DNA of 64,000 nucleotides from Caulobacter sp. (GTDB taxonomy: Bacteria > Pseudomonadota > Alphaproteobacteria > Caulobacterales > Caulobacteraceae), in contig JAUSPV010000224.1 in assembly GCA_030652755.1 (NCBI GenBank), positions 14,770-78,769 on the forward strand, in the 5' to 3' direction. The notes under the pieces are model-generated. The model was not told the origin of the DNA, searched no databases, and worked only from the letters and a program-made list of their open reading frames with translations. Of this stretch, positions 1 through 52,962 are shown piece after piece (positions within the stretch are counted from its first letter, which is position 1; every line of letters starts with the position of its first letter). The position numbers and the translations under genes are program-made.

Positions 1-152
1 TCTGGACCGACAGCCTGCCGGCCGGCGGCCAGGCCAACCCGATGGTCTACGAGCAGGACGGCAAGCAGTATCTGGTGATCATGGCCGGAGGGCACCACTT
101 CATGGAAACCCCCAACGGCGACTATGTGATCGCCTACGCCCTGCCGGGCTGA
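1..152 (+). CDS. C-terminal fragment of membrane-bound PQQ-dependent dehydrogenase (glucose/quinate/shikimate family), partial
   Basis: Frame from nt 3 reads WTDSLPAGGQANPMVYEQDGKQYLVIMAGGHHFMETPNGDYVIAYALPG*, the typical C-terminus of this family; TGA overlaps next ATG (TGATG). Confidence 0.85.
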   Translation, partial: WTDSLPAGGQANPMVYEQDGKQYLVIMAGGHHFMETPNGDYVIAYALPG

Positions 153-892
153 TGGGCGGCGTGGATCCCGACATCTGGACGCCCTACTGCGGCGTCGCCC
201 CGGCGCCGGCGAATTACCTTGAGCGCTGGAACCTCGACCCGCTGCTCCTGGGCGCGCTGCTGGGCTTGCTGCTCCTGCTTGTCTGGCGAGGGGATCCGGC
301 GCGCCGCGGGCTCGCGGCGGCGGCCGTCGCCGTGCTGGTCGTGAGTTTCGTCTCGCCGCTGTGCGCCCTGAGTTCGGCATTGTTCTCGGCGCGGACCGTG
401 CATCACGTCCTGCTGGTCGCCGCCGCGGCGCCCTTGCTGGCGTGGAGCCTGCCTGGGCGCAGGGTGGGGCCCCTGACCGTCGCCACCCTCGTCCCGGCGG
501 CGGTGTTCTGGTTCTGGCATGCGCCAGACGCCTATGCGGCCGCCCTGTCGAGCGACGGGCTGTACTGGGTGATGCAGCTCAGCCTGCTCGGCTCGGCTGT
601 CTGGTTCTGGATGGCGGTGAGGGCGGCGTCGGCGCCCGCCGCGATCGCCGCGCTTCTGGTCAGCATGGTCCTGATGGGCCTGCTCGGCGCCCTGCTCACC
701 TTCGCGGGCGCGCCGCTGTACGCGCCGCACCTGCTGACGTCCCGCGCGTTTGGTCTGGAGCCGCTGGAAGATCAGCAGATCGCCGGCCTTACCATGTGGG
801 CCCCGGCGGCGGCGGTCTACATGATCGCGGCCCTGACCGTGCTGGGTCATCGCCTTGGCCGGGATCGGAGCGGCGCGGGCAGGACCGCATGA
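152..892 (+). CDS. ctaG: Cytochrome c oxidase assembly protein, Caa3_CtaG family
   Basis: Multi-TM protein with HHVLLV, FWFWHAPDAY and DQQIAGLTMW motifs; lies in oxidase cluster. Confidence 0.8.
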   Translation: MGGVDPDIWTPYCGVAPAPANYLERWNLDPLLLGALLGLLLLLVWRGDPARRGLAAAAVAVLVVSFVSPLCALSSALFSARTVHHVLLVAAAAPLLAWSLPGRRVGPLTVATLVPAAVFWFWHAPDAYAAALSSDGLYWVMQLSLLGSAVWFWMAVRAASAPAAIAALLVSMVLMGLLGALLTFAGAPLYAPHLLTSRAFGLEPLEDQQIAGLTMWAPAAAVYMIAALTVLGHRLGRDRSGAGRTA

Positions 893-1623
893 TCGACAAG
901 CTTGTCGTCAGGGTCCTTGAGTGGGCCGCGGGCCACGCGGACGAGGGGCGTTTCTCGCCGGTCGCCATCGCCTTTCACTGGACCATGGCGGCGCTGGTGC
1001 TCTTCCAGCTGGGCTGGGGCTGGTGGATGGGTCGACTGCCGGTGGGCGGCGACAAGGTCGCGGCCTACGAGCTGCACTTTCTGATCGGCATTCTGATGCT
1101 GCTGCTGGTCGCCGGTCGCGCGGGCTGGCGGTTGCTGGCGCCCGAGGTGATCAACGACGCCGACAAACCGGGCTGGGAAAGCACGGCCGCCCGGATCACC
1201 CACTACGTCTTCTACACCTGCCTCTTCGGGCTTCCGCTCTCGGGCTGGGCGATGGTCTCGGCCACCGCCCGCGAGCAGGAGCTGACGGTTCTGGGCCTCA
1301 TCACCTGGCCGCTGCTGCCGTTCCAGACCCTGTCCAACCCCGGACTCTGGCAGGTCGAGGCCATCGCCGAGTGGCTGCACTGGGGGCTTGTCGTCAGTCT
1401 GCTGCTTATGATCCCTCTCCACATCGTCGGGGCCCTGAAGCACCAGTTCATCGACCGGGACGATGTATTCCATGGGATGCTGCCAATCGTGCCGAAGCCG
1501 CCTCGGCGGCGGACACGCTGGCAACGTCGATATCGGGCCGTGGAGAAGAAGGCAGCGTCTCTAGCCAGACGGCTATGGCGTCTATTTCCGGTTCGGTCAG
1601 GGGCGCGGCCGCGGCGGTCATGA
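889..1623 (+). CDS. Di-heme cytochrome b (cytochrome b561-like)
   Basis: Four TM helices with His ligand motifs AFHW, YELHFLIG, WLHWGL, LHIVGALKHQF; ATG at 889 overlaps ctaG stop (ATGA). Confidence 0.85.
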   Translation: MIDKLVVRVLEWAAGHADEGRFSPVAIAFHWTMAALVLFQLGWGWWMGRLPVGGDKVAAYELHFLIGILMLLLVAGRAGWRLLAPEVINDADKPGWESTAARITHYVFYTCLFGLPLSGWAMVSATAREQELTVLGLITWPLLPFQTLSNPGLWQVEAIAEWLHWGLVVSLLLMIPLHIVGALKHQFIDRDDVFHGMLPIVPKPPRRRTRWQRRYRAVEKKAASLARRLWRLFPVRSGARPRRS

Positions 1624-2185
1624 TGCCGCGCGGATCGTTGCGCCGTTCCGAGCGAAGCCAGCGCCGCAGCTGCTCGACCGTGTAGCCGGCGGGCTGTCCC
1701 GCGAGGGCGGGGTTGGCGGGGCCGACGCCCTGACCGGCCGGGCCGTGACAGACGGCGCAGGCGACCAGACCCCTGGCCGGATCTCCGGTCAGATACAGCG
1801 CCGGCCCCGGCGTCGGCGACCCGGTCGAATCCGTCACAGGGAGCGCCGCGTAGTAGGCCGCGACCGCGCGTCGGTCGTCGTGGCCAAGGCGTCTGGCGAT
1901 GGGCGTCATGATCTCGTCATGGCGCAGGTCGGCGGCATAGTCGTCGAGCTGCTTCTGCAGATAGCCCGCGTCCAGGCCGGTCAGGCGGGGCGCCCCAATG
2001 CCGTCCCCCTGGCCGTCCATGCCGTGACAACTGAAGCAGGCCTTGGCCGCCCCCGCTTCGCCACCGCTCAGGGCGATCAACTCGCCAGTGGCGGTGAAGG
2101 GGTCTCCGGTCCGGTCGGCGTCCGGATGGCAGCCAGCGGCGAGGCCGGCGGCGAGGAGCAGGAGAATGGCGGCGCGCACACCCAT
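1448..2185 (-). CDS. Di-heme cytochrome c4-like protein, probable lipoprotein
   Basis: Two CxxCH motifs (CFSCH, CAVCH), P-x-L-x-G and YL-x-x-QL c4 patterns, N-terminal signal ending LAAGC. Start may be GTG at 2179. Confidence 0.85.
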   Translation of the reverse strand: MGVRAAILLLLAAGLAAGCHPDADRTGDPFTATGELIALSGGEAGAAKACFSCHGMDGQGDGIGAPRLTGLDAGYLQKQLDDYAADLRHDEIMTPIARRLGHDDRRAVAAYYAALPVTDSTGSPTPGPALYLTGDPARGLVACAVCHGPAGQGVGPANPALAGQPAGYTVEQLRRWLRSERRNDPRGIMTAAAAPLTEPEIDAIAVWLETLPSSPRPDIDVASVSAAEAASARLAASHGIHRPGR

Positions 2186-2312: not shown

Positions 2313-2666
2313 GTGATCGCGGCCTTGAGCCTTGTCGGCGCCTGCGCCGACAAGACCAATACTCCGCGCCTGATCGCCGGCGGCGATCCTTCGCGGGGCC
2401 TTGCCGTCATCGAGGAGGTCGGGTGCGGCGCCTGCCACGATATCCCCGGCGTCGGCTGGCCGCGCGGAACGGTAGGGGGGCCTCTGAAGGGTTTCGCCGT
2501 TCGCCCCCTCATCGCGGGCCGGTTTGCCAACCAGCCGGACACGCTGGTGACCTGGCTGAAGGACGCCCCCTCGCTGTCGCCCGCCAGCGGAATGCCGACG
2601 ATGCCGATCGCAGAGGACCAAGCCCGCGACGTCGCGGCCTACCTGTACACGCTCGATGACCATTGA
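2313..2666 (+). CDS. Mono-heme cytochrome c, probable lipoprotein
   Basis: CGACH, distal MP motif, lipobox VGAC. Start uncertain. Confidence 0.8.
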   Translation: MIAALSLVGACADKTNTPRLIAGGDPSRGLAVIEEVGCGACHDIPGVGWPRGTVGGPLKGFAVRPLIAGRFANQPDTLVTWLKDAPSLSPASGMPTMPIAEDQARDVAAYLYTLDDH

Positions 2667-3615
2667 ACGCGCCCCTGAAGGCTTCGCCGGCTGGCCGCCG
2701 CCGATCCTCGATCCGGCCGGCCCTTTCGCGGGGCCGGTCAACATCCTGTCGTGGATCCTGTTCGCCATGAGCGCGGTCGTGCTGGTTGTCGTGCTGGCGG
2801 CGCTGGCGGTGGCGTTGTTCGGACCAAAGCGCTGGCGGGTCCGGCTGGGCGGCGAGCGGCTCGTCTGGATCGGCGGTCTGGCGTTTCCGGTCGTGGTGCT
2901 CAGCGCGCTGCTGATCTATGGCCTGGGTCTCACCAGTCATCTGACCGACGATCCGCGCCCCGGCGAGGTCCGCATCAGGGTCACCGGAGAGATGTGGTGG
3001 TGGCGGGTGGCCTATCTCGACGGCGGCGGCCGCGAGGTGCTGCAGGACGCCAATGAAATCCACATCCCCGCCGGCCAGCCCGTCGTGTTCGAGCTGGAGT
3101 CGGCGGACGTCATTCACAGCTTCTGGGTGCCGCGCCTGGGCGGCAAGAAGGACATGATCCCCGGCCGGCGCAACATTTTGCGGCTGCAGGCCGATGCGCC
3201 GGGCGTGTTTGGCGGCCAGTGCGCCGAGTACTGCGGCGGGCCGCATGCGCTGATGGGTCTGGTCGTCGTCGCCCACCCGCCGGCCGAGTTCGAGGCCTGG
3301 AAGCGAAGACGGCTGGCGCCATCCCTGGCCGCCGGCCTGCCGTCACGCGGGACCGAGGTGTTCGACGCCTCGGGCTGCGGAGCCTGCCATACCGTGCGCG
3401 GGACCGCGGCCAACGGCCTCGCCGGTCCCGACCTCAGCCATGTCGGCGACCGTCGAACCCTCGGCGGCGGCATTCTTCCGACCAATCAGGGGACCCTGGC
3501 CGGCTGGATTTCCGACAGCCAGGCGATCAAGCCCGGCAACCGCATGCCCGCCTATCCCGTGCTGTCCGGCGAGGATCTGCGCGCGGTCGCGGCCTATCTC
3601 GAGAGCCTGAAATGA
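2656..3615 (+). CDS. coxB: Cytochrome c oxidase subunit II with fused C-terminal cytochrome c (caa3 type)
   Basis: MWWW loop, DVIHSFW, CuA motif CAEYCGGPHALM, C-terminal CGACH and NRMP. Confidence 0.95.
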   Translation: MTIERAPEGFAGWPPPILDPAGPFAGPVNILSWILFAMSAVVLVVVLAALAVALFGPKRWRVRLGGERLVWIGGLAFPVVVLSALLIYGLGLTSHLTDDPRPGEVRIRVTGEMWWWRVAYLDGGGREVLQDANEIHIPAGQPVVFELESADVIHSFWVPRLGGKKDMIPGRRNILRLQADAPGVFGGQCAEYCGGPHALMGLVVVAHPPAEFEAWKRRRLAPSLAAGLPSRGTEVFDASGCGACHTVRGTAANGLAGPDLSHVGDRRTLGGGILPTNQGTLAGWISDSQAIKPGNRMPAYPVLSGEDLRAVAAYLESLK

Positions 3616-6152
3616 CGTCCGAAACCGGCTTCGACCGGACGCTGTACGAGCGCTTCCCGACCACGGAGCCGCGCCCGCGGGACGAGCTGGACGAGCTCGA
3701 GGCGGTCTGGTGTCGGCCTCGCTCGACCTGGCAGTGGATGACCGCGATCAACAACAACTTCGTCGGGGTCTACTACGTCGGCGCGGCCATGCTGTTCTTC
3801 GTTCTGGCGGGGCTTCTGGCCCTGCTGATGCGGACCCAGCTGGCGTTGCCGCTGAACGGTTTCCTGCCGCAGGAGACCTACAACCAGATGTTCACCGTGC
3901 ACGGGACGGCGATGATGTTCCTGTTCGCGGTGCCGGCGGTGGAGGCGCTGGGCGTCCTGCTGTTGCCGCAGATGCTGGGCGCGAGGGATCTGCCGTTCCC
4001 GAGGCTCAGCGCCTATGCCTTCTGGGCCTATCTGATCGGCGGCCTGGCCTTCTTCTGCTCGCTGCTGTTCGGGCTGGCGCCGAGCGGCGGCTGGTTCATG
4101 TATCCGCCGCTTAGCAACATCACCTACTCGCCAGGGATCAACGCCGACTTCTGGCTGCTGGGGATCGGTTTCATCGAGATCTCGGCCATCGCCGGCGCCA
4201 TCGAGATCATCGTTGGCGTGCTGCGGACCCGCGCGCCGGGCATGACGCTCGACAAGCTGCCGGTGTTTGCCTGGGCGATGCTGATCTTCGCCTGCATGAT
4301 CATCATCGCCTTCCCGTCCATCATCCTGGCGACCACCCTGATGGAGCTGGAGCGCGCGCTCGGCTGGCCCTTCTTCGATCCGGCCCGGGGCGGGGATCCG
4401 ATGCTGTGGCAGCACCTGTTCTGGTTCTTCGGACACCCGGAGGTCTACATCATCTTCCTGCCGGCGGCGGGCGCGATGTCGACCATCGTGCCGGTGGTGG
4501 CCCAGACGCCGCTGGTCGGCCACCGGCTGGTGGTGCTGGCCATGCTCGCGACGGGCTTCATCAGCTTCGGCGTCTGGGCGCACCACATGTTCACGACCGG
4601 CATGCCGACCATCTCGACCAGCTTCTTCTCTGCGGCGTCGGCTGCAGTCTCGATCCCGGCCGGCATCCAGGTCTTCAGCTGGATCGCGACGGTCGGCTCG
4701 GGAAGGATGCGCTTCAACACGCCCGGACTGTTCGTGCTCGGCAGTCTTGTCATCTTCACCATGGGTGGTCTGACCGGGGTCATGGCCGCCATGGTCCCGT
4801 TCGACTGGCAGGTTCACGACACCTACTTCATCGTTGCGCATCTGCATTACGTGCTGATCGGCGGCATGGTCTTTCCGCTGTTCGCCGCGATCTATCACTG
4901 GATGCCCATGGTCAGCAGTCGCCCGCTCAGCGACCGGCTGGGCAAGTGGGCGTTCTGGCTGATGTTCACCGGGATGCATGCGACCTTCTTCACCATGCAC
5001 CTGACCGGCCTGATGGGCATGCCGCGGCGGGTCTATACCTACCTGCCGGGACGCGGGCTGGACCTGCCCAACCTGATATCGACGATCGGCGCCTTCCTGT
5101 TCGCGGCCGGCGTGCTGATCTGGGTGATCGACATGATCCGCAACTTCCGGCCGTTCGGCGCCCGCAACGCCGGCAATATCCATGACGCGCCCGGCCTGGA
5201 GTGGTTGCCGAACGGACTCTACTCGGTGCGCTCGATCCCGGTGGTCTCCAGCCTCTACCCCCTCTGGGACCAGAAGGGACTCGCCGGCGACGTGGAGGCC
5301 GGGCGCTACTTCCTGCCGCGCACGGCGACGGGGCATCGCGAAACCATCCTGACCAGCACCCTGAACGCCGAGCCGATCGCCCTGATGCGCCTGCCGCAAC
5401 CGTCGGGCTGGCCGCTGTGGGCGGCGCTGTTCACCGCGGGATTCTTCCTGCTGCTGACCGTGCAGGCCTACTGGCCATCGGTGGTCAGCGGCGTGCTCGC
5501 CATCTACTGCATCATGACCTGGGCATGGTCGCTCGACCGGCCCCTGCCGCAGAAGACGGTCGACATCGGGGCCGGCATCCGCGCGCCGACCTACGTGAGC
5601 GGCCCGGCGAGTCACGGCTGGTGGGCGATGGTCATCACCCTCGTTGTCGGCGGCATGGTGCTGGCCATGAGCGCCTTCAGCTATGTCTTCCTGTGGAGCC
5701 GCAACCCGCAGAGCTGGGCGCCCCCGCCGGAGGTCGCCTCGCTGGCGATGCTGCTGGCCATGAACGCCGCGGGGGTGCTGCTGGCCTGGGGCGCCTGTCG
5801 AATATTGCGAAGGGGGGGGCGAGTGCGTGCGGCGCTGGCGACCCTGCTCATGCTGCTCGCGGTCGGTCTGGTCGGCGGCGCCTGGGGCCTGGATCTGAGC
5901 GCCTGGCTTGCAACGGGCCTCGATCCCACCGTCAACGCCCAGGGGGCCACCGTCTACGCCTTCATGGCCTGGCAGGGCTTCTTCGTCTCGGTGGCGGGCC
6001 TGATGGGGCTCTTCCTGCTCCTGCGGTGGATGGCCGGCCTTGTGCGCGCCGACTGCCCCTCCACCGTCGATCTGATCGCGCTGTTCGTCGCCTACACCGC
6101 CGGGCAGGGGGCCTTCGCGGGGCTGCTGCTGCGCCTGTTCCCGGGCTCCTGA
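3612..6152 (+). CDS. ctaD: Heme-copper oxidase subunit I fused to a subunit III-like C-terminal domain
   Basis: 846 aa from ATG 3612 (ATGA overlap); TVHG, WFFGHPEVY, VWAHHMF, HDTY, AHLHY, MPRR; about 250 extra hydrophobic C-terminal residues. Confidence 0.95.
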   Translation: MTSETGFDRTLYERFPTTEPRPRDELDELEAVWCRPRSTWQWMTAINNNFVGVYYVGAAMLFFVLAGLLALLMRTQLALPLNGFLPQETYNQMFTVHGTAMMFLFAVPAVEALGVLLLPQMLGARDLPFPRLSAYAFWAYLIGGLAFFCSLLFGLAPSGGWFMYPPLSNITYSPGINADFWLLGIGFIEISAIAGAIEIIVGVLRTRAPGMTLDKLPVFAWAMLIFACMIIIAFPSIILATTLMELERALGWPFFDPARGGDPMLWQHLFWFFGHPEVYIIFLPAAGAMSTIVPVVAQTPLVGHRLVVLAMLATGFISFGVWAHHMFTTGMPTISTSFFSAASAAVSIPAGIQVFSWIATVGSGRMRFNTPGLFVLGSLVIFTMGGLTGVMAAMVPFDWQVHDTYFIVAHLHYVLIGGMVFPLFAAIYHWMPMVSSRPLSDRLGKWAFWLMFTGMHATFFTMHLTGLMGMPRRVYTYLPGRGLDLPNLISTIGAFLFAAGVLIWVIDMIRNFRPFGARNAGNIHDAPGLEWLPNGLYSVRSIPVVSSLYPLWDQKGLAGDVEAGRYFLPRTATGHRETILTSTLNAEPIALMRLPQPSGWPLWAALFTAGFFLLLTVQAYWPSVVSGVLAIYCIMTWAWSLDRPLPQKTVDIGAGIRAPTYVSGPASHGWWAMVITLVVGGMVLAMSAFSYVFLWSRNPQSWAPPPEVASLAMLLAMNAAGVLLAWGACRILRRGGRVRAALATLLMLLAVGLVGGAWGLDLSAWLATGLDPTVNAQGATVYAFMAWQGFFVSVAGLMGLFLLLRWMAGLVRADCPSTVDLIALFVAYTAGQGAFAGLLLRLFPGS

Positions 6153-6643: not shown

Positions 6644-8464
6644 ATGCGGCTTTCGCGGCGCGACTTCGGATTTGGACTTGCGGCGACGGCGGTCGCGGCC
6701 CCGGCCGCCCGGGCGGCGACCCCCGCCGCCGGCCATGACCAGCAGCTTACCGCCTACCTCGACCAGGCCTTCGAGCAGGAGCTGGCGATGGAGCCGGAGC
6801 GGCTCACCCGGCTGGGCCGCAAGACGCTGAACGACCGCTTCACGGATCGATCAGACGCCGGCCGGCTGCAAAGGCTTGAGTGGCGTCGGCGCAACGTGGC
6901 CGAGATGAAGCGTCGGTTCGATCCGGCGAAGCTCGGCGAGGACGCCCGGACCTCCTGGGACATGTGGGTTCTGGAGCTTGAGCGCGAAGAGGCCGACTAC
7001 CGCTGGCGGGATCACGCCTACGTCTTCGGGCGGAACGGCGCGCATACCGCGCTGCCCGGCTTCATGATCAACACCCACAAGGTGGACAGTCTGGCCGACA
7101 TGGAGGCCTACATCGTCCGCGTCGCGGCGATCGGCCCGACGCTGGATGGGGAGCGCGGCAGGGCCGAGCGCGCCGCCGCCGCCGGGGTGCGGATGCCGCG
7201 CTTCGCCTATGATCAGTCCATCGAGGAAGTGCGGCGGCTGGGCGTCGGCGCGCCGTTCGGCGAGGCGCCTGACGCGGCGCTGTTCGCGGACGCCAAGGGC
7301 AAGATCGCGGCGCTGCGCGCCGCGGGCGCGATCGACGACGCGCAGGCCACGCGGCTGACGGACGCTGTCGCCGGCGCCATGACCGCCAGGATGAAGCCCG
7401 CCTACGACCGGCTGGGCGCCTGGCTGGTCGCCGACCGGGAGAAGGCGTCGGCCGAGCCCCAGGGCGCGGGGGCGCTGCCCGACGGCGCGGCCTTCTACAA
7501 CGCCATGCTGCGGCTGCAGACCACCACGGACATGTCGGCCGACGAGATCCATGCGCTGGGCCTTGCCGAGGTGACGCGGATCCGCGCCGAGATGGAGACG
7601 CTCAAAGGCAAGATCGGGTTTGCCGGCACGCTGGAGGAGTTCTTCGTCTTCATGCGCACCGACGACCGCTTCTACGTGTCCGACGACGACGCCGGCCGGG
7701 CGCGCTACCTCAAGCTGGCCGAGGACTATCTGGCGGCGATGAAAGCCAGGCTGCCGCAGTACTTCGGTCGGGTGCCCCGGTCGGACCTGGTCGTCAAGGC
7801 GGTGGAGGCCTATCGCGCCGAGCCGGGCGGGGCGGCGCACTACAACTCCGGCTCCCTGGCGGCGGGACGCCCGGGCGTCTTCTACGTCCATCTGGCTGAC
7901 ACCCGCGCGACGCCGACCTATGAGATCGAGGGCACGGCCTATCACGAGGGCTGGCCGGGCCATCACATGCAGATTTCGCTGGCCCAGGAGATGACCGGGC
8001 TCCCGACCTTCCGCACGCAGTCGGGCTACGGGGCCTATGTCGAGGGCTGGGGTCTGTACGTCGAGCGGCTGGCCAAGGAGATCGGCTTCTACGAGGACGA
8101 GTACAGCGACTTCGGCCGGCTGGGGCGCGAGATCTGGCGGGCGATCCGACTGGTGGTCGACACCGGCATTCACGCCAAGGGCTGGAGCGAGGCGCAGGCC
8201 CTGGCCTTCTACACCGCCAACTCGCCGCAACCGGTCGCCAAGATCCGGTCCGAAATCCGCCGGTACTTCGTCATGCCGGGGCAGGCCACGTCCTACAAGG
8301 TGGGCATGGTCAGGATCCTGGCCCTGCGCGAGCAGGCGCGTGAGGCGCTGGGCGCCCGGTTCGATCTGCGCGCGTTCCACGATGTGGTGCTGGGAGCCGG
8401 GGCGCTGCCGCTGCCTGTGCTGCAGGCCCGCGTCGATCGTTGGGTGGCCCGGCAGGCGGCCTGA
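6644..8464 (+). CDS. DUF885 family protein with Tat signal, probable metallopeptidase
   Basis: SRRDF twin-arginine signal; YHEGWPGHHMQ, EGWGLY, RAIRLVVDTG and PGQATSYKVG motifs; SD AGGAG upstream. Confidence 0.9.
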   Translation: MRLSRRDFGFGLAATAVAAPAARAATPAAGHDQQLTAYLDQAFEQELAMEPERLTRLGRKTLNDRFTDRSDAGRLQRLEWRRRNVAEMKRRFDPAKLGEDARTSWDMWVLELEREEADYRWRDHAYVFGRNGAHTALPGFMINTHKVDSLADMEAYIVRVAAIGPTLDGERGRAERAAAAGVRMPRFAYDQSIEEVRRLGVGAPFGEAPDAALFADAKGKIAALRAAGAIDDAQATRLTDAVAGAMTARMKPAYDRLGAWLVADREKASAEPQGAGALPDGAAFYNAMLRLQTTTDMSADEIHALGLAEVTRIRAEMETLKGKIGFAGTLEEFFVFMRTDDRFYVSDDDAGRARYLKLAEDYLAAMKARLPQYFGRVPRSDLVVKAVEAYRAEPGGAAHYNSGSLAAGRPGVFYVHLADTRATPTYEIEGTAYHEGWPGHHMQISLAQEMTGLPTFRTQSGYGAYVEGWGLYVERLAKEIGFYEDEYSDFGRLGREIWRAIRLVVDTGIHAKGWSEAQALAFYTANSPQPVAKIRSEIRRYFVMPGQATSYKVGMVRILALREQAREALGARFDLRAFHDVVLGAGALPLPVLQARVDRWVARQAA

Positions 8465-8520: not shown

Positions 8521-10941
8521 CTAGAACTCGCCCTTGAGTGTCACGCCCCAGGTGCGTTCGTCGCCGGGCTGGCCCACGATCAGGCCGGTGTTACCCGGGC
8601 CGAGCGCCAGTTGTTCGAAGTACTCTTCGTCGAAGGCGTTGCGCACCCAGCCGAAGATGTCGAAGCCTTCGTCCGTCCGGAAGCCGGCCCGGAAGTTGGC
8701 CAGCGAGTAGCCCTTGATGTTGGTGTAGATCGAAGGCGACGCGTTCGAGGAGAAGTCCGAGCGATAGCTGGCCTCGAAGCCGATGTAGCCGGAACCTTCG
8801 CGGCCCAGGAACGTCACCGGCCGGCTGGCTTCCGCGCCGTAGGAGAAGGCCCACTTCGACACCCCGGGCAGGCGGCCGCCGGAGATGTCGCAGTTTGCGG
8901 GGCTGAGACCGCCGGGCGTTCCCGGCGCGGACGGAGTCTGACCGGCCCCGACGGTGGTTCCACCCGCCAGTTCGGGCGGGCAGGGGGCGTCGACGAACTT
9001 CACGTACCTGGCGTCGGTGTAGGCGCCGTTGACATAGGCCGACAGCCATTCGCTGGGCCGAACGGAGAAGTCGAACTCAACGCCCTGACTCCGGACCTGC
9101 TCGGCGTTGGCCAGATAGCCGCGCAGCACGCCGAACTGGCCGTTGGTGACGGTGGCCTGGAAGTCCTCGATGTCGGTGCGGAAGATCGAGAGGTTGAGGA
9201 TGGCGCGACCGTTCCAGAATTCGGTCTTCAGACCGCCCTCGAGGTGCGTCACGTCTTCCGGTTTGATCGTGCCCGCCGACAGGATCGGGTTGCCGGCGGC
9301 GTCGGTCGGCAGGCCGTTCTGGTTGACGCCACCGGTCTTGAAGGTCTTGGCGACCGTGGCGTAGCCCAGAACGTCCGGCGTGAACCGGTAGCTTCCCGTC
9401 AGATCATAGCTGAAGTTGGTGTCGCTGAACTTGGGCGCGCTGAGCTGCGGCGCGAGAATGCCGCGCTGGGCGACCTTGATCGGGTCGGTCTGGCCGAACA
9501 GCACCGGATTGCCCTGGCCGTCGAAGACCTTGCGCTCGTAAAAGCCTTCCTTCTTGTCGTAGTTGATCCGGATCCCGGGCTGGATCGTGAAGGCATCGGT
9601 CAGCTTCCAGCTGAGCTGTCCATACAGCGCGGCACTGGTGTTCTTCAGGTACTGGGTGTTGAGCGCCGTCAGGCCATCGAGGACCGCCGGGTTGTTCGCC
9701 AGGGCGCCGGTAAGGCTCCAGCGGCTGGCGTTGGCGCCGTTCTGCTCGATCCCCTGGGTGTCGATCCGCTGATAGAAACCGAAGGCGCCGAGCACGAAGT
9801 CGAGACGGTCGCCTGAGTAGGCGTAACGCACCTCCTGGCTGTACTGGTCCTGCTGGGACGGGTTGTTCGACTTCGAAACGATCGACAGGCCGATGAAGTC
9901 GCGATCGTTTTCGGGCTTCCAGTCCCAGAACCGCCAGGCGGTCACGGCGGTCAGGACGCCCGGGCCGACGTTCCACACCACGCGCGCCGAAGCGCCGCCA
10001 ATCTCGTTGCCGGCGTTGAGATTGGCGTCGACATCGGTGATGCGGTCAAACGGATTGGTGCTGGGAACAGCGTAGCCCTGGGCCGCGGCCAGGGCGGCGT
10101 ACTGGCGGGCCAGCGGGCGCTGGGTGGCGCCGGTGCGGACGTAGATCTGCGCGCAGCATTCCGGGTTCTGGTCGCTGTAGTCGGCGCTCAGGGTGATCCG
10201 CAGGTCCTCGTTCGGACGGAACAGCAGCTGGGCGCGGAGGCCCAGGTTGTCCTGCTCGTTGATCCTGTTCCCGGTCGTCACATTGTAGATCGTTCCGTTG
10301 CGGCTCGTGGACGAGATGGCGAGGCGACCCGCGAGGGTCTCGGTCAGAGGTCCGGACACCACGCCTTTGGCCTGCCTGAAGCCCAGGTTGCCAACCGTCA
10401 GTTCGGCCCTTCCTTCAAAGTCGAAGGTCGGCGCGTTGCTGGTGATGTTGACCGCGCCGGCCGTGGTGTTCTTGCCGTACAGCGTGCCTTGGGGGCCGCG
10501 CAGCACCTCGACCTGGGAGATGTCGAGGAAGTCGAATGTCGCGGCCGCTGCGCGGGCGTAATAGACGTCGTCGACATAGATGCCGACGCCCTGTTCGAAA
10601 CCGTCGCTGGTCAAGCCGAACGGAACGCCCAGGCCACGGATGTTGACCGTCGTGTTCCGCGGGTTGGACGAATAGTACTGGAAGGTCGGAGTCAGCTGCT
10701 GCAGCCGGCCGACCGTGAACACGCCGGCGTTCTCGACCGCGGCGGCGCTGAGCACCGAAATGGCGACCGGCACCTCCTGCACGCTTTCGGAACGGCGGCG
10801 CGCGGTCACGATCAGCGCATCGACCGTGGACTCCGCCTCGGCGGTGGTCGTCGTGGCCGCGACTTCTGTTTCGGCATAGGCGACGGTGGCCGCGCCGCAC
10901 AGCAGGGCGGTCAACAGACCGCGATGGAAGACCTTGTACAC
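8521..10941 (-). CDS. TonB-dependent receptor
   Basis: Signal peptide, TonB box region LIVTARRR, plug motif LRGPQGTLYGKNTTAGAVN, C-terminal aromatic residue (KGEF). Confidence 0.95.
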   Translation of the reverse strand: MYKVFHRGLLTALLCGAATVAYAETEVAATTTTAEAESTVDALIVTARRRSESVQEVPVAISVLSAAAVENAGVFTVGRLQQLTPTFQYYSSNPRNTTVNIRGLGVPFGLTSDGFEQGVGIYVDDVYYARAAAATFDFLDISQVEVLRGPQGTLYGKNTTAGAVNITSNAPTFDFEGRAELTVGNLGFRQAKGVVSGPLTETLAGRLAISSTSRNGTIYNVTTGNRINEQDNLGLRAQLLFRPNEDLRITLSADYSDQNPECCAQIYVRTGATQRPLARQYAALAAAQGYAVPSTNPFDRITDVDANLNAGNEIGGASARVVWNVGPGVLTAVTAWRFWDWKPENDRDFIGLSIVSKSNNPSQQDQYSQEVRYAYSGDRLDFVLGAFGFYQRIDTQGIEQNGANASRWSLTGALANNPAVLDGLTALNTQYLKNTSAALYGQLSWKLTDAFTIQPGIRINYDKKEGFYERKVFDGQGNPVLFGQTDPIKVAQRGILAPQLSAPKFSDTNFSYDLTGSYRFTPDVLGYATVAKTFKTGGVNQNGLPTDAAGNPILSAGTIKPEDVTHLEGGLKTEFWNGRAILNLSIFRTDIEDFQATVTNGQFGVLRGYLANAEQVRSQGVEFDFSVRPSEWLSAYVNGAYTDARYVKFVDAPCPPELAGGTTVGAGQTPSAPGTPGGLSPANCDISGGRLPGVSKWAFSYGAEASRPVTFLGREGSGYIGFEASYRSDFSSNASPSIYTNIKGYSLANFRAGFRTDEGFDIFGWVRNAFDEEYFEQLALGPGNTGLIVGQPGDERTWGVTLKGEF

Positions 10942-52769: not shown

Positions 52770-52962
52770 CAGGCGTTCCTCGTGTGAAGGTCGGTCGGTT
52801 CGGCGAGCGGAGCCGTGGTCGTTCCCAGGACGGACGGGGGCGAACGATCCCGACAGGCGGGCGAAAATTCCAGCGGAATTTGATACAGATCATCACTGGC
52901 CGGTCCGGCGAGGCGCCTCATCGCGGTCGCGGCGGACGGGCCGAGCTTCGGAGACCGGGACC

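Follow-up and report, generated by a model that had tools for sequence, protein, structure and literature searches.

From work on model haem-copper oxidases, it is held that enzymes of the A type depend on the K-channel lysine for the reductive half-cycle and that coupled pumping requires the asparagine neck of the D-channel, through its effect on the pKa of the gating glutamate. Here we analyse a 64,000-nucleotide (nt) stretch of DNA from Caulobacter sp. (GenBank assembly GCA_030652755.1, contig JAUSPV010000224.1, positions 14,770 to 78,769 of the forward strand; hereafter the window), which carries an operon for a cytochrome oxidase with subunit I fused to subunit III. The product of the fused gene, coxI+III, belongs to a clade that breaks both rules in a conserved, co-adapted way: glutamine replaces the lysine, the asparagine neck is lost and three glutamates appear in helices II and IV. 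On balance we think it probable, from sequence comparison, that the enzyme is a functional caa3-type cytochrome c:O2 oxidoreductase of the A family in which all protons would pass through a glutamate-lined, D-type route.

An oxidase operon with a fused subunit I+III

The operon comprises, in order, genes for a cytochrome c, a CoxII–cytochrome c fusion, CoxI+III and a small membrane protein, with a Caa3_CtaG gene nearby (Table 1). The oxidase open reading frame (ORF) is intact and translationally coupled to the neighbouring genes; its start overlaps the coxII stop in ATGA, and the ORF of the monohaem cytochrome c shares 11 nt with the start of coxII. An earlier, sequence-only reading of this DNA had placed the oxidase at 3612–5200. 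The start holds, whereas the end spans only the COX1 domain (residues 51–496; PF00115, E 6e-145), because the ORF continues from the ATG at 3612 to 6152. That reading also missed the COX1–COX3 fusion, a glutamate at position 111 and the loss of an entrance glutamate from subunit II, both described below.

The C-terminal 296 residues gave no match in direct Pfam and PDB sequence searches. A profile built from the tails of 12 homologues aligns with COX3 chains over their whole length (E 3e-22), seven helices are predicted in the AlphaFold2 (AF2) model of the tail (pLDDT 85), which can be superposed on bovine COX3 with a TM of 0.66–0.69, and one homologue (P0126) carries PF00510. The full-length AF2 model (pLDDT 82, pTM 0.88) is closest to the fused I+III chain of Thermus caa3 (2yev_A; TM-score 0.84/0.90 over 823 columns). 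In subunit II, both the CuA motif (H154...C189-x-E-x-C193...H197..M200) and the haem c motif (C241GACH) are complete; the protein scores 152.7 bits against TIGR02866, whose cut-off is 147.7, and its closest PDB match is Thermus caa3 subunit II (2yev_B, E 1.9e-51).

The six histidines, PF00115 and the COX1 fold identify subunit I of a haem-copper oxidase, and placement in the A family follows from the match to aa3/caa3 subunit I (E 1e-124, against 1e-14 for ba3) and from clustering beside caa3-type relatives. HPEVY is the motif of type A1, and the CuA domain (residues 154–200) and fused cytochrome c (CGACH at 241) of subunit II are those of a caa3-type enzyme. The channels of type A1 are present only in part: the entrance aspartate of the D-channel is there, with V115, S133 and E198 at the asparagine positions, and the K-channel has Q353 for lysine and no subunit II glutamate. 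Subunit I scores just under the cut-off of the CtaD_CoxA equivalog TIGR02891 (659.8 bits against 670.75) and far from that of the CcoN model TIGR00780 (29.8 against 583). Many homologues are named 'cbb3-type cytochrome c oxidase subunit I' or 'cytochrome ubiquinol oxidase subunit I' in NCBI and UniRef, and one 'cytochrome B561'; these names are wrong, given the low CcoN score and a subunit II with CuA and cytochrome c. This matters for annotation and for what is concluded about metabolism from metagenomes, because the genes of this clade, at present labelled 'cbb3-type' or simply 'subunit I', are taken for standard high-yield aa3 oxidases.

Catalytic residues and the channel signature

To assign residues, subunit I was aligned (MAFFT) with bovine COX1, in a sequence identical to PDB 1occ_A, and with 120 homologues of 69–98% identity from Brevundimonas, Caulobacter and Phenylobacterium. 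The haem and CuB ligands H97 (bovine H61), H275, H324, H325, H410 and H412 are present and invariant in the alignment, and both E277 (bovine E242) and Y279 (bovine Y244) are kept. Conservation covers the core (the six histidines, E277, Y279, R472/R473, the Mg-site pair H402/D403 and W161) and the exit side, where D398 joins R472/R473, H402/D403 and W161. D126, at the D-channel entrance, corresponds to bovine D91 and is retained, whereas the three D-channel asparagines N80, N98 and N163 are replaced by V115, S133 and E198. E189, at bovine G154, is an additional glutamate, and A350 and Q353 stand at bovine T316 and K319. Independent HMMER alignments to mycobacterial CtaD give identical, gap-free placements ('ipagiqvf'/'vptgikff', 'prlsayafw'/'prlnafsfw' and 'aieii'/'avnmi', query first). 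All the residues named in the sequence-only reading, among them E189 as a second glutamate in helix IV, were reproduced in the alignment with bovine COX1.

Q353, A350, E189 and E198 occur in every one of the 120 homologues, the conservation that the sequence-only reading had proposed to check, and V115 occurs in 119. A second branch of 119 sequences (from Aurantimonas, Fulvimarina, Aureimonas, Skermanella, Methylopila and others) has E111, E189, E198, Q353, E245 and F282, each in 119 of 119, and the set E111, E189, E198 and Q353 is invariant across roughly 240 close homologues, which is far from what chance would give. In a further comparison, 51 sequences with the signature were set against 99 Lys-type relatives. 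Positions 189, 198 and 353 served to separate the two groups, so that these three are 100% by construction; E111, E189, E198 and Q353 are each found in none of the 99 lysine-containing relatives. Further clade-specific positions are M102, A106, E111, M229, E245, F282, P332, F397 and P422. Clade-specific polar changes are limited to E111, E189, E198, E245 and Q353, and, because the list holds no others, glutamates are the only new protonatable groups. R125 and Q400 were considered as clade-specific and dropped, being common to ordinary caa3-type relatives.

Such conservation bears directly on whether the substitutions arose as a redundant oxidase gene decayed in one lineage, or are an artefact of the alignment, an explanation to which we give practically no chance. 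After testing, it has in its favour only the few derived paralogues inside the clade that lost CuB ligands. The ORF is intact and coupled, the signature is invariant among the close homologues and recurs in several phyla, and the alignment is gap-free at each site in both MAFFT and HMMER. Conservation across phyla and the gap-free alignments refute decay and artefact alike, and, with substitutions conserved and coordinated in hundreds of sequences, a misplaced lysine is removed from consideration too.

Table 1 Features of the oxidase locus, in window coordinates.
Feature	Position	Strand	Evidence or conservation
Caa3_CtaG-type oxidase assembly factor	152..892	+	PF09678, E 6e-25
Cytochrome b561 family membrane protein	889..1623	+	PF01292, E 1.4e-26
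Dihaem cytochrome c, lipobox LAAGC	1448..2185	-	PF00034 twice, CFSCH and CAVCH motifs
Monohaem cytochrome c, lipobox VGAC, first gene of the operon	2313..2666	+	PF00034, CGACH
Subunit II, CuA domain and C-terminal cytochrome c (caa3-type)	2656..3615	+	PF00116, PF00034, TIGR02866
Subunit II GGERLVWIGG, site of the K-channel entrance Glu (R. sphaeroides E101, P. denitrificans E78), Glu absent	2848..2877	+	
Fused subunit I+III, 846 amino acids	3612..6152	+	ORF and translation
E111 codon, helix II (bovine G76)	3942..3944	+	E in 93% of clade, 0% of Lys-type relatives
V115 codon (bovine N80, R. sphaeroides N121)	3954..3956	+	I/V/M in clade; N in 98% of relatives
D126 codon (bovine D91, R. sphaeroides D132)	3987..3989	+	Clade D 71%, E 18%, N 10%
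S133 codon (bovine N98, R. sphaeroides N139)	4008..4010	+	S/N/G in clade; N in 99% of relatives
E189 codon, helix IV (bovine G154)	4176..4178	+	E in 120/120 and 119/119; G in 91% of relatives
E198 codon, helix IV (bovine N163, R. sphaeroides N207)	4203..4205	+	E in 120/120 and 119/119; N in 100% of relatives
HPEVY motif H275-P-E277-V-Y279: CuB ligand, terminal Glu of the D-channel, cross-link Tyr	4434..4448	+	120/120 homologues
A350-G-I-Q353 (bovine T316...K319), K-channel Thr/Lys	4659..4670	+	Q in every member; S/T/A at 350
Divergent seven-helix COX3 domain	5337..6149	+	Profile and fold match
Small three-helix membrane protein, putative extra subunit, 104 amino acids	6154..6468	+	Conserved downstream of coxI+III

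Changes along the D-channel

The two ends of the D-channel are largely kept. The position of bovine D91 is D or E in 89% of the clade and N in 10% (D in relatives), and that of E242 is E in 92% and D in 6% (E in relatives). Elsewhere along the channel, N80, S101 and S157, which are N, S and S in relatives, have become I/V, G/A and A in the clade, and G76, G154 and N163 (G/A, G and N in relatives) have become E111, E189 and E198. E111 is one turn above N80 and E189 adjoins the upper serines; the AF2 model places E111 in helix II (87–122) and both E189 and E198 in helix IV (180–205), at pLDDT 82–94. Bovine N163, N80 and S156/S157 are known to line the D-channel, and the three glutamates lie at or beside these positions. 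As judged from the alignment, the D-pathway is re-lined: the asparagine neck and the hydroxyls are lost, three glutamates are gained, and D126 and E277 are kept.

Carboxylates in the neck have been studied by mutagenesis. N139D, N207D and the yeast N99D turn over normally or faster with pumping uncoupled (PMC7196763), a behaviour that would suit a naturally uncoupled, non-pumping oxidase serving as an accessory O2 scavenger or electron sink, with chemical protons only. The operon also looks accessory in the order, because it is absent from the four oxidases described in the model of the order, C. vibrioides (PMC12617631), and the NCBIfam score falls just below the CtaD equivalog cut-off. We nonetheless consider such an enzyme unlikely. 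E277, the haem-propionate arginine pair, the Mg-site residues, the COX3 domain and D126, which a scavenger would need less, are strongly conserved, and the double mutant D132N/N139D, which pumps again, shows that added acids need not uncouple (PMC7196763). An uncoupled enzyme in any case overlaps with the glutamate-lined route that we favour, stoichiometry being the sole difference between them.

The recoupling of D132N/N139D further means that an acid in the neck can replace the entrance aspartate (PMC7196763), which fits the clade members that have asparagine at the D126 position and keep E198. Four clade loci (L022, L023, L025 and L039) have asparagine at this position, all with E189 and E198. 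In L027 the entrance is asparagine, E189 is kept and position 198 is N; in L020 the entrance is serine and only E189 is kept. These six entrance-variant proteins are about 650 amino acids long, which leaves room for a short C-terminal extension at most and not for the full COX3 domain.

Changes along the K-channel

The K-channel has fared differently. At K319 the clade has invariant glutamine, whereas its Lys-type relatives have invariant lysine. Around it, S255 and T316 are 96–100% conserved in relatives, whereas S255 is serine in 72% of the clade and alanine in 118 of the 119 sequences of the second branch, and T316 is divided among S, T and A. The S322 position (N or S in relatives) is A, C, V or S, bovine position 256 (E in relatives) is M, T or A, and I247, one turn below the tyrosine and isoleucine in relatives, is an invariant phenylalanine (F282). 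S343 (bovine T309) is serine in 98% of the clade. No compensating polar residue was seen at the K-channel lining among the clade sequences compared. The entrance has changed as well: canonical caa3-type relatives carry HGNxxLE(I/V)xWT in subunit II, whereas the position of its glutamate is hydrophobic in all signature loci and in two actinobacterial loci that have only Q353 (L021 and L029), so that loss of the entrance glutamate co-varies with Q353.

Such mosaic erosion of the lining around an invariant glutamine points to relaxed constraint, and thus to a K-channel that was dismantled rather than rebuilt, contrary to what the sequence-only reading had proposed for this half of the enzyme. On the residues compared, the clade fits abandonment of the canonical K-pathway. 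It is conceivable, but we think improbable, that both routes work, with the K-pathway acting as a neutral, hydrogen-bonded water wire through the glutamine and the glutamates merely tuning the D-pathway. The complete invariance of Q353, the 98% serine at S343 and the retention of Y279 would all suit a working wire, and the B family, which has no lysine, uses its K region (threonine in the K354 column of the ba3 rows in Table S7 of PMC8239418). Against this, the subunit II entrance glutamate is lost in all members, S255 is alanine in nearly all of one branch, T316 is alanine in the lineage of the query, 322 is A, C or V and 256 is M, T or A, a phenylalanine is fixed one turn below the tyrosine, and mosaic erosion is itself the pattern of relaxed constraint.

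A deep, multi-phylum clade

We searched for the spread of the signature exhaustively in 50%-identity representatives and in a scan of one genome per species, and could detect it down to about 40% identity. It is carried by Alpha-, Beta- and Gammaproteobacteria, Planctomycetota, Gemmatimonadota, Rhodothermales, Chloroflexota, Acidobacteriota and Rokubacteria; carriers in named genera are Aurantimonas, Fulvimarina, Aureimonas, Skermanella, Methylopila, Ancylobacter, Brevundimonas and some Caulobacter species. The clade is widespread in soil, water and plant-associated bacteria. It is deep and multi-phylum, and no biochemical characterisation of it was found in the literature; a search of the carrier genera for a model organism found no biochemistry on the enzyme in any of them. 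The sequence-only reading had noted similar fused operons in comparative surveys and knew of no biochemistry, which agrees with what we found (PMC4013037; PMC8239418).

In a quick neighbour-joining distance tree, built independently of the signature, the sequences with Q353 all fall together in a single clade of 65 tips. Its basal members have the canonical Asn/Asn/Asn D-channel and glycine at 189, and, by this distance tree, loss of the K-channel lysine therefore preceded remodelling of the D-channel.

Two further groups were seen in or near the clade. Paralogues P0143, P0146, P0175, P0254 and P0151, which are derived, full-length (700–900 amino acids) and inside the Q353 clade, no longer carry ligands of CuB, of haem or of both (for example H275A, H324A/G and H325R/Q); from their sequences they look like non-catalytic, oxidase-like membrane proteins. 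A neighbouring group (P0137, P0153, P0160, P0171, P0187, P0224 and P0258) has HPWVY for HPEVY, that is, tryptophan at the gating glutamate, together with A, V, L, Q or S for the lysine and canonical D-channel asparagines, and so represents yet another channel variant.

A proposed glutamate-lined proton route

We propose that chemical protons, and any pumped ones, would enter through a relay of D126, E198, E111, E189 and E277. With E111, E189 and E198 counted as the only new clade-specific protonatable groups, a route through them is the natural inference. The sequence-only reading had suggested a different proton route through E189 and E198; a conserved alternative arrangement is borne out, to which E111 and the loss of the K-channel must be added. 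The enzyme would then be a single-channel, D-only oxidase, the reverse of the arrangement in the B and C families, where a K-type channel alone is retained. If it behaves like the enzymes of these two families and like the uncoupled Asn-to-Asp mutants, its pumping stoichiometry should lie below 1 H+/e-. The proposal in its fullest form, a natural D-only A-family oxidase that would carry out full O2 reduction, and possibly pump, over a five-carboxylate ladder (D126/E198/E111/E189/E277) without any K-pathway, is a tentative extrapolation from sequence, which we hold to be possible rather than probable.

Several points weigh against a D-only route. Model enzymes almost lose turnover without the K-channel lysine, in whose absence E277 would have to serve the reductive half-cycle. 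An ideal helix puts bovine position 154 about 180 degrees from 163, so that E189 may not face the lumen into which E198 points, and the invariance of the glutamine suggests that position 353 keeps a role. Lastly, no biochemical work on any clade member was found in the literature, and the oxidase sequence is present in DNA metagenome runs only (groundwater and soil) and in no RNA runs.

A quite different function for the glutamates, in binding or translocating a cation such as Na+, or another substrate, NO or peroxide, seems to us very improbable. Three buried, invariant carboxylates amid residues turned hydrophobic could form an ion site, and NO reductase families arose repeatedly from oxygen reductases (PMC11214002). 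However, the O2-reducing site is standard (three CuB histidines, the cross-link tyrosine and HPEVY), whereas the described NO reductase families all alter it; the features that define those families (PMC11214002) are absent here, the tyrosine and the three CuB histidines being intact and a CuA subunit present. Electron entry through CuA and cytochrome c is likewise intact, and the conserved neighbourhood holds no denitrification or Na+-cycle genes.

Were the D-only proposal true, the two-channel A-type design would not be mechanistically obligatory. The clade amounts to an experiment of nature on what the K-channel and the asparagine neck do: if active, its enzymes offer a natural test of whether Glu-286-type chemistry can serve all four chemical protons, and they bear on the compatibility of D-channel carboxylates with pumping and on the origin of single-channel oxidases.

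Comparison with known oxidases

Thermus thermophilus caa3 (PDB 2YEV) resembles the query in its fused I+III and its subunit II–cytochrome c, and the query has a caa3-type CtaG nearby. Thermus caa3 is of type A2, with a YS motif for the helix VI glutamate, and keeps the K-channel lysine. At 30% identity to it, the query differs in being of the HPEVY type, in lacking both K-channel residues and in having the glutamate triad; in the alignment, Thermus subunit II keeps its glutamate in an RLEVVW segment, which the query lacks. The closest solved catalytic subunits are those of actinobacterial aa3 CtaD (PDB 9wcx, 8hcr and 6adq; E ~1e-124, 39–40% identity). Actinobacterial CtaD and Bacillus caa3/aa3-600 have R125 and Q400 in common with the query; unlike it, they keep the canonical lysine, threonine, asparagine triad and subunit II glutamate and are unfused to COX3.

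In gene architecture the query belongs to COX operon type a, with COX1–COX3 and COX2–cytochrome c fusions and Caa3_CtaG in the cluster, a type described from Proteobacteria and a few Chloroflexi (PMC4013037, PMC8239418). Its COX1–3 fusions were reported with Sphingomonadales and Caulobacterales as named carriers (Degli Esposti 2014, PMC4013037), and a later survey lists 'A1 subtype a, COX13 fused' with Caa3_CtaG, long, fast-evolving branches and a K-channel entry of 'yes' (PMC8239418, Table S1). That last entry does not describe the present clade, which has Q353 and has lost the subunit II glutamate throughout. Table S7 of the survey has no Lys-to-Gln entry, and the legend of its Fig. S9, for one tree of 78 bacterial COX1/FixN, states no significant change in D-channel composition (PMC8239418). 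Compared with the enzymes of these surveys, the query clade has the lysine, the COX2 glutamate and the asparagine neck all replaced. The clade is unmentioned in the census of haem-copper oxidase families by Murali et al. (PMC11214002).

Loss of the lysine is not new in itself, because A-type oxidases without it are documented among acidophiles and archaea (PMC8239418). Those of the Acidithiobacillus rus operon (CoxA), Aeropyrum and Ferroplasma (Table S7) have likewise lost both the lysine and the COX2 glutamate and are known or presumed to be active. They differ from the query clade in having I, V, L, M, F or A at the lysine position and often two extra N-terminal helices, and the survey flags no D-channel changes in them; the query clade has its invariant glutamine and glutamate triad and forms a separate group in the tree. 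The B family (ba3) offers another parallel, as single-channel haem-copper oxygen reductases without the lysine, but it keeps the K-type route and has no D route, and its sequence relation to the query is distant (E ~1e-14). Engineered mutants of R. sphaeroides, P. denitrificans and yeast (N139D, N207D, N99D, D132N/N139D and K362M) carry changes of the same kind at the positions altered here, such as an acid at N207 (E198 in the query) or loss of the lysine. They are single laboratory changes in a canonical channel, whereas the changes in the query clade are natural, multiple, co-adapted and conserved.

Accessory genes and the surrounding chromosome

The Caa3_CtaG family adjoins the oxidase in distant clade members too. 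The small three-helix protein is encoded downstream of coxI+III in L001–L006, L008–L012, L014, L016 and L018, and similar-sized unannotated ORFs occupy this place in L081 and L082; it was not found in clade loci L013, L017 and L033, and a Pfam search gave no family for it. W14, F18 and Y22 are invariant (motif W-A-x-H-F...Y). A cysteine after helix 1 and another at the C terminus, probably a periplasmic pair, are present in 12 of 15 sequences and absent from the protein of the window and its closest relatives. The protein may be a clade-specific extra subunit.

The cytochrome b561 gene accompanies the operon also in a Sphingopyxis locus (L002) and does not belong to the conserved core. The dihaem cytochrome c gene is divergent from the operon, and homologues lie near the oxidase in L002, L004–L006 and L009–L011. 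The 3′ ends of these two ORFs converge at 1448–1623 with an overlap of about 176 nt when both are followed to their stop codons, and the C terminus of one or the other protein may be shorter than its ORF. At the distant locus L082 (12484–15298), the oxidase genes are followed by genes for a small cytochrome c, a gluconate 2-dehydrogenase subunit 3-like protein, a GMC oxidoreductase and Caa3_CtaG, an order suggesting that a dedicated chain may lead from a periplasmic dehydrogenase to the oxidase in this organism.

Scanning the region upstream of the operon (2185–2313) revealed no FNR/FixK box. Over the whole window, TTGAT-N4-ATCAA with at most two mismatches gave 14 matches, against 4.7 expected from shuffles; the best, with one mismatch, is at 52880–52893, and none falls in the oxidase promoter region. 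No ctaA or ctaB was seen in the annotated stretches of the window, the remainder of which is ordinary chromosome (BamB, Der, PurF, DnaB, LptD and PurL). The DNA derives from a groundwater metagenome, and Brevundimonas and Caulobacter are nearest to it in sequence. Just downstream of the operon lie genes for a DUF885 protein (6644–8464, forward strand) and a TonB-dependent receptor with Plug and beta-barrel domains (8521–10941, reverse strand). In C. vibrioides, copper supply to the aa3 oxidase requires the TonB-dependent receptor TccA (PMC12617631); by analogy, and only as a suggestion, the receptor in the window might be linked to copper supply for the oxidase described here.

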